64,000 nt of DNA from Chrysomallon squamiferum (Eukaryota; Animalia; Mollusca): assembly GCA_012295275.1 (NCBI GenBank), contig CM022667.1, forward strand, positions 7,998,001 to 8,062,000, read 5' to 3'. The first letter of the stretch is position 1; each line of letters begins with the position of its first letter. The position numbers and the translations under genes are program-made. The notes below the pieces were generated by a model. It was not told the DNA's origin. It did not search any database and saw only the letters and a list, made by a program, of their open reading frames with translations. Below, piece after piece: positions 39,201-42,200 of this stretch.

Positions 39201-42200
39201 TGTATGTATGTATGGATGTATGGATGAATGAATGGATGGATGTATGTATGGATGGATGGATGGATGGATGGATGCTAGGATACAGAGAACACAAATGACT
39301 GGTCTGTGACTGGATGTATGATGTGTGTGTGACAAAGAGTCAGTGAGTGTGTACCTCATGAAGTCGGTGAAGTAGCGAGTGGGAACAACAAGTTTTTCCA
39401 TTTCTTCCCCACATCCTCGCTCACAATACGTCGCAGCGTCTTCTCGTACCACGCTAGGTCATTGACCTCGACAAACCTGTGCACGGGTTAATCAAGTAGT
39501 AGAACACACTGTTGATTAATCACATTCGTTAATAGCGGTGGAGAAACAAAGCAAAACACTATCAGCAGTCCTTGAGGCTAAATACAGTCTGTGTTTTGTG
39601 ACTCTGTCCACATGTGATTGTCACTTACACACAGGAGTTTACTAATTCTGTACGCATCAATTAGAAAAAAGTGCACTATCACTGACAAAACATCTGATTT
39701 GACAGATAATAAATCTCTGAAAATCTTTTATTTTAATTTATTTTAATTTTTTTTTTTTTTTAAATAAGACACTAAACTGTTGTATAGCCTCAAAAACCAC
39801 TTAATTAAAAACAAAACAGAACAGCCCAAATCAGTCAGCTGGGAGCTAGAAGGGATTAGTACTAATCCACACGGGAGAGCTGTGAGTACCTGAGGAAATC
39901 AACAAAGTAATGAATGGGTTCGACCATCTGTACAAAGTGTTCAGTCATGTCTTCACTTACAATGCGAGTCATTGTCTTACTGAACCACTGTCCATCATCA
40001 AAGCCTGTGAATCTGGTAAACACAGCCCATGTTGTTAAAATATGTACACAGTAAACTTTACATTACTAAAATATTACATCTTCATCTATTAATAAATACA
40101 GCCCATGTAGTTAAAATATGCACATAGTAAACTTTACATTACTAAAATATTACATCTTATCTATTAATAAACACAGCCCATGTTGTTAAAATATGTACAC
40201 AGTAAACTTTACATTACTAAAATATTACATCTTATCTATTAATAAACACAGCCCATGTAGTTAAAATACACATATAGTAAACTTTACATTACTAAAATAT
40301 TACATCTCATCTATAAATAAATACAGCCCATGTTGTTAAAATATGTACATAGTAAACTTTACATTTCTAAAATATTACATCTCATCTATTAATAAACACA
40401 GCCCAGATGTTTACTTCATGTTGTTAAAATATACATAGTAAATATTACATCTCATTATTTAAAACATTATATTAAAATATACATAGTAAACTTTAAATAT
40501 TAAAATATTGAATCTATTTATATGTTAAAATATGTACACAGTAAACTTTACATTACTAAAATATTACATCTTATCTATTAATAAACAACACAGCCCAGAT
40601 GTTTACTTCATGTTGTTAAAATATACATAGTAAATATTACATTATTGAAATATTATATTTATATACATAGTAAATATTATATTATTGAAATATTATATTT
40701 ATATACATTATAAATATTACAATATTGAAATATGGTATTTAAATAGATAGTAAATATTACATTACTAAAATAAAATATTTATATACATAATAAATATTAT
40801 ATTATGAAAATATATTTATATACATAGTAAATATTACATTGCTAAAATATTATATTTATATACATAGTAAATATTACATTGCTAATAAATGATTTGTCTA
40901 TCTATTAGTATATGTAGCTCAAATTAATGCATGATTATTAAATCATTTTTATCTACTATTAACATATATATATATATATATATATATTTAACATTTTTTA
41001 AAAACTATGATATTCATATTAAAGCCTGTAATAAAAAATATTTATAAAATTCCAGTAACTAAGAAACTCTCAGTAATATAAATATAAATAATAATTACAT
41101 AAAAACTGAAATAATAATATATATTTAATATAAAATGTAATGCAAGCATTGACAAATAAAAATTGATATAATTAATATTTAATATAAAAAAAAATAACAC
41201 TATTAATGATAAATAAAAACTGATATAGTACATATTTAATAAATAAAAATATATATTTAACATAAAAAAATAACACTATTAATGATAAATAAAAACTGAT
41301 ATAGTACATATTTAATATAAAAACTAAATAAAAATACATATTTAATATAAAAAATAATATGTGATATATAAAAACTGATGTTGCTAATGTTTAATACAGC
41401 TCGTAACTCATACCTGTCTGCAATGACGCGAGTACACTCGTGTTTCCACAATGCCATCAGAACCTCGGGTTTGTTGACGACAGAGCTGATGGTGTTGAGC
41501 ATGCCCTGCCAGATACGAGACAGATCTCGCAAGTTGAAGATGTAGTGAAACTTCGCTGGCGTCGGCAACATCTTTGTCTGAAGTAAAAGCATCTTGTGTT
41601 AAAACTGGTCATCATCTGATTTGTTGATGTCTAAAACTACATCTCACTGACTGGACTGGTCTTAGATTACATCATCATATGAGAGTTAACATGTGTATCT
41701 AGTAAACTAACTCACAACTCTTTTTTAAATGGTTAAACACAGAAATTATTTTATTCCTAAAACTCCTGATGTTATATAACAAGTTGGACTAAACCATGAT
41801 TAAAATCTGAGATGTAGTCAAATATGTGACTGTGACAGACTGATTAGAGTCACATCACTATAAAAATTCTATGTTTTACCTCAAATAACAGTTCCAAACA
41901 ACATTTCTCAAATCAAAAGACAAATTTCATGATTTCACAAATTCTAATGGTTTGACCAGTTTTTATATGATGATTTAACAAATGTTATAAAAGTTATGTT
42001 CTATTTTTTTAGTTATTTTTTTCTGATGCTCTCAGATTGTGTGGTGTAAAATACTAATAACAAAAATCACCTTGGTTAACTGCCACAAGCGTCTTGTGAT
42101 TGGGACAAGGGATTTGACAAGGTCACAGATAGCCTCGGTGAATCCCCGCGCCTTGCAGAAGTGACCACACCCGATGACAGAGAAGATTTTGTCGATGGAG

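Follow-up and report, generated by a model that had tools for sequence, protein, structure and literature searches.

Does one axonemal dynein gene of Chrysomallon squamiferum provide two versions of its motor by using either of two tandem exons, and which of the two is used? The question is raised by a 64,000-nucleotide stretch of contig CM022667.1 (assembly GCA_012295275.1, positions 7,998,001 to 8,062,000; hereafter the window), in which an earlier note had described two homologous phase 2-2 exons lying 413 nt apart, here called A and B. The coordinates, peptides, phases and spacing given there all hold, and the two exons form a real, old and functional-looking mutually exclusive pair in an axonemal dynein, which is shared with several other invertebrates. 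The host gene and the exons of the cluster are located as follows.

About 21255..63658, minus strand: host gene, an outer-arm dynein gamma-type heavy chain (DHC3, DNAH5-like), with three exons matched to dyneins
41414..41577, minus strand: upstream constitutive exon, ending ...VIADR at 41414 (AAA3 lid; Pfam PF17857 match and junction to B)
39890..40012, minus strand: exon copy A, the first copy and minor form, 123 nt, phase 2-2 (open frame, AG/GTACTC, junction in run X4, family profile)
39355..39476, minus strand: exon copy B, the second copy and usual form, phase 2-2 (AG/GTACAC; 123 nt in reads, 122 nt in the window)
39407..39410, minus strand: homopolymer lacking one base in the window sequence, an assembly error (extra C in 8/8 runs)
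36657..36726, minus strand: downstream constitutive exon, starting DAPE at 36726 (junctions from B and from A)

Human DNAH5 is the best match for all three host-gene exons tested and in each of them scores above the next match, a DNAH8-sized chain that we take to be DNAH8 from its length, its entry being labelled otherwise. The best dynein matches thus fall among DNAH5, DNAH8 and the Chlamydomonas gamma heavy chain, as expected of a DHC3 member, and the window sits in no starred clade of a tree built from 248 constitutive columns. The 5' end of the gene probably lies outside the window. A frame change in a dynein tail exon at 58762-58760 (minus strand), within a CG dinucleotide run and too tight for an intron, is from its sequence probably a further assembly indel, and suggests that more such slips are present in the assembly. 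Two neighbouring genes were also seen, one PNKP-like (Pfam PNK3P, about 13500-16120, minus strand) and one NDRG-like (Pfam Ndr, about 2370-6240, plus strand).

A and B are adjacent, homologous and equal in phase, with 68 of 123 aligned bases identical (an alignment score reached by 0/2000 shuffles) and 18 of the 39 comparable residues identical, 11 of these 18 being specified by different codons. No third copy of A was found in the window by tblastn. Eleven sequencing runs were available, nine of which contain the exon-pair stretch, and eight were compared (X5, X7 and X11 were left out). All eight, seven from the organism itself and one from a second organism, carry an extra C behind 39406, which shows that B is 123 nt long and that the window is one base wrong. 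The 1-nt homopolymer correction that the earlier note had asked for in B is thus borne out, and with it the equal length of the two exons. The possibility that B is a pseudoexon is ruled out, as its frame is intact in the reads and it is spliced in mRNA. As refutation the same note had named, on the one hand, a lack of reads with B combined with a real frameshift and with absence or decay of B in relatives and, on the other, routine joint inclusion of A and B. Neither turned up, B being intact and spliced; it is A, not B, whose use is incompletely supported.

The use of the two copies was followed in five spliced runs, of which X8 and X9 are recorded as RNA, whereas X1, X4 and X6 are labelled 'DNA?' and were taken as RNA because they are spliced. 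All junction data come from assembled contigs, from which rare forms can drop out and ratios cannot be derived. The junction from B to the downstream exon (39355->36726) is present in all five spliced runs and that from the upstream exon to B (41414->39476) in four of the five; the contigs concerned are long, are unbroken at the junctions, come from two studies and skip A, and where they run past B their overhanging sequence is identical to the neighbouring exons in the window. The junction from A to the downstream exon (39890->36726), with B skipped, was met in a single spliced run (1/5, X4), on a contig of 162 bases with an overhang of 18 bases, the other end of which retains 20 bases of the upstream intron; it may represent a part-spliced or dead-end molecule. 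The junction from the upstream exon to A (41414->40012) was seen in the contigs of none of the five spliced runs (0/5). In X1 and X8 the coverage of A is unspliced throughout, and its missing coverage in X9 and X6 was not counted as evidence. A joint between A and B (39890->39476) occurs in none of the eight runs compared, so that the two exons are not included together at contig level, where low-level co-inclusion could be missed. These results support the one-or-the-other splicing that had been proposed, since no A-B joint was found and the A-to-downstream molecule skips B. The accompanying claim that either copy bridges VIADR to DAPEATG stands in full for B, with both junctions seen, and for A on the downstream side, the upstream side of A being the part that did not appear. 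Of the two copies, the one usually spliced in is B.

Comparison of the two copies suggests that both have been maintained. The two copies have reached saturation at synonymous sites (pS 0.82) at a pN of 0.34, and within the species all six SNPs in B, and the single SNP site in A, are synonymous. A contig of 1008 bases from the second species carries B together with the last 41 bases of A and its donor in the same order. In it, B shows 21 differences over about 130 nt (nine of the 12 listed are synonymous), A shows six differences in its last 41 bases, and the A-B interval of 545 bases cannot be aligned to the window. The next 30 bases of the A region in this species read in frame as GEELGDSYVP by hand translation, which resembles the family pattern. 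Scored against a profile of 144 homologous segments, A reaches 56.0, with 25 segments lower, and B, with one column missing, 29.7, with one segment lower. B deviates from two nearly invariant residues (F10 to Y and V37 to T), both of which A keeps; A has T where 72% of the homologs and the second species have G. When neutral decay of A was simulated, frame and splice sites survived 0.5 substitutions per site in 6% of trials, and the profile score was kept in 0/2000 trials at every distance tried. A search with A alone against proteins of 73-2000 aa, a weak test, gave no match. Both copies thus bear marks of purifying selection or conservation, and the old duplication under protein-level selection proposed earlier is supported by the pS and pN values, the synonymous SNPs, the second species and the profile score, tandem copies being present in six other organisms as well.

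The exon encodes the last, C-terminal portion of the lid (small) domain of AAA3 and the beginning of the connector that leads to AAA4, AAA4 itself starting about 90 residues after the exon start. This refines the earlier placement of the exon between AAA3 and AAA4 of the dynein ring, since the segment is not a free linker. The upstream exon corresponds to positions 15-67 of the 100 in the Pfam AAA-lid PF17857 and to human DNAH5 residues 2780-2832, and the downstream exon supplies the acidic loop in the AAA3-AAA4 connector. An AlphaFold model of the related fragment P0033 (mean pLDDT 55; 92-94 over residues 181-200) predicts that the segment folds as a long helix, then a short one, then a strand (the YFVDF motif); the acidic loop and another strand, both from the next exon, come after it. 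In the Tetrahymena outer arm, as described in the available parts of two reports (PMC8500839, PMC10267688), AAA3S contributes to the grooves that take the neighbouring linker, and an AAA3 extension touches the linker in the post-2 state; however, the contacts described there belong to the other two heads. A swap of the exon would be predicted to leave the ATP-binding P-loops unchanged and to alter AAA3-AAA4 packing, or the contacts with linker or neighbour, and in this way it might tune the beat.

How could inclusion of both exons be avoided? With A and B each 123 nt long, a multiple of three, nonsense-mediated decay cannot enforce the choice, because a message with A plus B stays in frame. 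Exclusion would then operate at splicing, through weak sites on both exons together with a cell-type splicing factor. The donors of A and B are both weak, with 4 of the 36 introns of the gene scoring lower for each; the acceptor of B is very weak (1/36 lower) and that of A modest (7/36 lower). Weak splice sites are the usual picture for regulated exons. Two further features of the cluster may be relevant here.

39564..39801, minus strand: candidate RNA stem spanning a long range within the A-B intron, of putative function (arms at about 39801-39767 and 39597-39564)
40017..40405, no strand assigned: 75-nt x 5.2 tandem repeat, ending at the acceptor AG of A

The stem might assist exclusion by folding up the A-B intron. 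Its best helix (17-bp, -28.6 kcal/mol) was reached by 0/150 shuffles and by 0/24 other introns of the gene. Between the copies at other loci, shuffles reached the stem in 0/25 cases in L031, in 1/25 and 51/60 in L028 and in 2/25 in L009, and three short inter-copy introns hold no stem. Among 14 control introns, three have a stem that beats all shuffles (0/20), and we therefore rejected stems as a sign of a mechanism shared between loci. No docking-site/selector pair stood out after allowing for 16 comparisons: three of the 16 region pairs beat 20/20 shuffles, and none of them corresponds to one docker outside the cluster serving both exons. Folding of the whole region gave a z of 0.41, and the longest inverted repeats were dismissed as AT-rich noise. 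The loop of this stem carries a 52-base deletion polymorphism within the A-B intron (39642-39693; X3 and X8). A perfect palindrome of 16 bases, at 39872-39857 just 3' of the donor of A, holds ACUAAU, the sole copy in the A-B intron, which we take to be a QKI/HOW-type motif. The unit of the 75-nt repeat resembles the acceptor region of A, and by hand reading the upstream AGs of the nearest unit would lead to stops or frameshifts.

Tandem copies in other animals were sought by scanning metagenome contigs with a DNA pattern that hits exactly A and B in the window, which makes the resulting sample biased by the pattern. The scan gave 35 loci, from which 10 non-dynein loci were dropped; two to three copies with AG/GT ends are present in tandem in 8 of the 25 dynein loci, corresponding to six distinct organisms.

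Loci with tandem copies: L006=L019=L024 (99% identical), L012, L026, L009, L031 and L028

L028 carries three copies, and the first copy of L009 is cut by the contig end. Twelve of the 25 dynein loci have one fused copy and cannot switch, because the upstream intron is missing. In L033 one copy lies between the two neighbouring exons, L020 is likewise single, and L007, L032 and L034 were too short for a call. The first copy closes with HY(F/Y)VDFL and the second with T-x-YF(T/Q/G)DFM in the window as well as in L009 and L031, and these matching endings suggest common ancestry of both copy types. Trees of the 40 columns of the copies do not separate one origin from several, and constrained trees were not rejected (A and B together, p-AU 0.29; second copies together, 0.37; first copies together, 0.38). 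In the 248 constitutive columns the pair-bearing loci group with the window at 83/80, not starred.

Four loci, L006, L012, L026 and L033, have introns of 63-100 nt and a codon use that correlates at 0.94-0.98 with that of L030, which groups with Rotaria at 100/99. Judged from these sequence properties they are probably bdelloid rotifers, an assignment driven in part by low GC3. Between L006 and L026 the first copies share 20 of 40 residues (pN 0.26) and the second copies 36 of 40 (pN 0.07). The first copy of L012 is frame-broken by the loss of 13 bases (110 nt) and L033 is without a first copy. The rotifer-like group thus looks like a stepwise loss of copy 1, and L028 like an extra duplication. 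TTTGCAC stands 47-51 bases from the first donor in L006, L012 and L026, though the introns measure 81-100, and is absent from the eight flanking introns checked; from the sequence, this spacing is compatible with a putative steric or factor-bound block.

The end point of this loss of copy 1 would be four proteins (P0033, P0042, P0074 and P0115) in which a copy-2 type follows the upstream exon directly in one open frame. P0024 comes from a nearly intronless locus; its C-terminal end includes a translated short intron and, beyond it, a strongly diverged exon copy, which may be the first copy of another pair. P0057, a model from the gastropod Batillaria attramentaria, joins the upstream exon to the downstream exon and skips the exon of this cluster, likely an annotation miss at the same place. 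The vertebrate, tunicate, arthropod and flatworm proteins compared contain one version of the segment each, and such protein models cannot exclude a second exon. Two adjacent copies were found in none of the proteins compared, the sole double match being a duplicated long block in P0001.

The explanation that we favour, and hold to be probable, is that A and B are spliced singly, B in every spliced sample and A in a minority of messages, with two motors that differ at 21 of the 39 comparable residues as the likely result. Both exons are intact, B is found in mRNA, the donor of A is joined downstream past B and the second species keeps both exons; a full-length A mRNA and its protein would be expected in some cell type or stage. 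A could instead be a relic in this species, formerly alternative and now rarely and unproductively spliced, its donor still in use but its acceptor disabled by the repeat, so that only the B motor is made. The lack of an upstream-to-A junction in the five spliced runs, the upstream intron kept by the A-to-downstream contig and the tandem repeat at the acceptor all fit such a history, as do the divergence of A from the second species, which is faster than that of B, and the broken (L012) or lost (L033) first copies. However, A has an open frame, canonical AG/GT ends and a good profile score, its acceptor outscores that of B, which is used, its lone SNP (one site) is synonymous, and it is conserved in the second species at a near-saturated synonymous distance; we consider a relic quite unlikely. 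That A and B are independent cassette exons, both of which can be included to give a 41-residue insertion, appears very improbable: lengths of 123 nt would keep such a message in frame and the 413-nt intron is long enough for splicing, but the A-B joint is absent from all eight runs (0/8), the only spliced A molecule skips B, the proteins compared have no adjacent double copy, and the predicted model makes the segment a helix-helix-strand unit of the ring.

Single splicing of A and B, the favoured reading, has as its special case a switch between the sperm flagellum (A) and somatic cilia (B), a tentative possibility with the chances somewhat against it. Bdelloid rotifers are not known to make sperm, and some members of the group whose codon use matches the Rotaria-grouped locus L030 have a broken first copy or none. 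The faster evolution of first copies (pN 0.26 against 0.07, L006 versus L026) and the rarity or absence of A in five bulk samples point the same way; the best PDB dynein match of A is also the DNAH8-sized chain, not DNAH5, but with an E of 0.059. On the other side, the runs are not labelled by tissue, the link of these loci to bdelloids is indirect, and intact first copies remain in L006 and L026 of the same probably spermless group. In addition, the available part of Kollmar (2016, PMC5100056) dates two DHC3 duplications, and so the DHC3 paralogs, to the base of animals, so that invertebrates can have separate genes for the two roles, which weakens the analogy with vertebrate DNAH5 and DNAH8 drawn in the earlier note. 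A still wider scenario, unlikely as a whole, would be a one-time exon duplication dating to the last common ancestor that rotifers share with other spiralians, with the switch kept for more than 500 million years, copy 1 serving as a fast-evolving motor of the sperm flagellum or a specialised cilium that decays in spermless bdelloids, and copy 2 as the somatic ciliary motor.

Several known systems resemble this one. The DHC1 pair of Schistosoma mansoni also lies midway in a heavy-chain gene and consists of homologous exons in tandem, which have the same length and are bounded on either side by split codons, as far as the available text describes it (Pillmann et al. 2011, PMC3228551); however, that gene encodes cytoplasmic dynein-1, whereas the host here is an axonemal outer-arm DHC3. 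As in the muscle myosin heavy chains of metazoans, a motor would be tuned by swapping tandem exons within its motor domain; in the available account different phyla have the myosin exon clusters in common, some lineages having expanded them and others having lost them (Kollmar and Hatje 2014, PMC3912159). Myosin is actin-based and has many clusters, in contrast to the single cluster in the part of the dynein gene that lies inside the window. The host gene itself is a DHC3, like human DNAH5 and DNAH8 and the Chlamydomonas gamma heavy chain (PMC5100056). Alternative splice forms in the motor domain are mentioned there for some DHC genes, DHC1 being the only case named in the part available. Ciona cilia and sperm differ in axonemal components according to a report whose available part does not mention splicing (PMC4427456). 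Our literature search found no description of this cluster or of mutually exclusive exons in any axonemal dynein, which agrees with the earlier view that the pair was undescribed for this gene class; the supplement of PMC5100056, covered in part, may contain them.

The pair also bears on annotation, since the exon that appears broken in the window is the one normally used, the P0057 model skips the exon, and such clusters are easily missed. Diversity of axonemal motors is usually credited to gene duplication, and a conserved exon switch in the AAA ring would be another route to it. The pair offers a natural two-variant experiment that is confined to about 40 residues of an outer-arm motor, and such a switch could let invertebrates tune the cilia of different cells from one gene.
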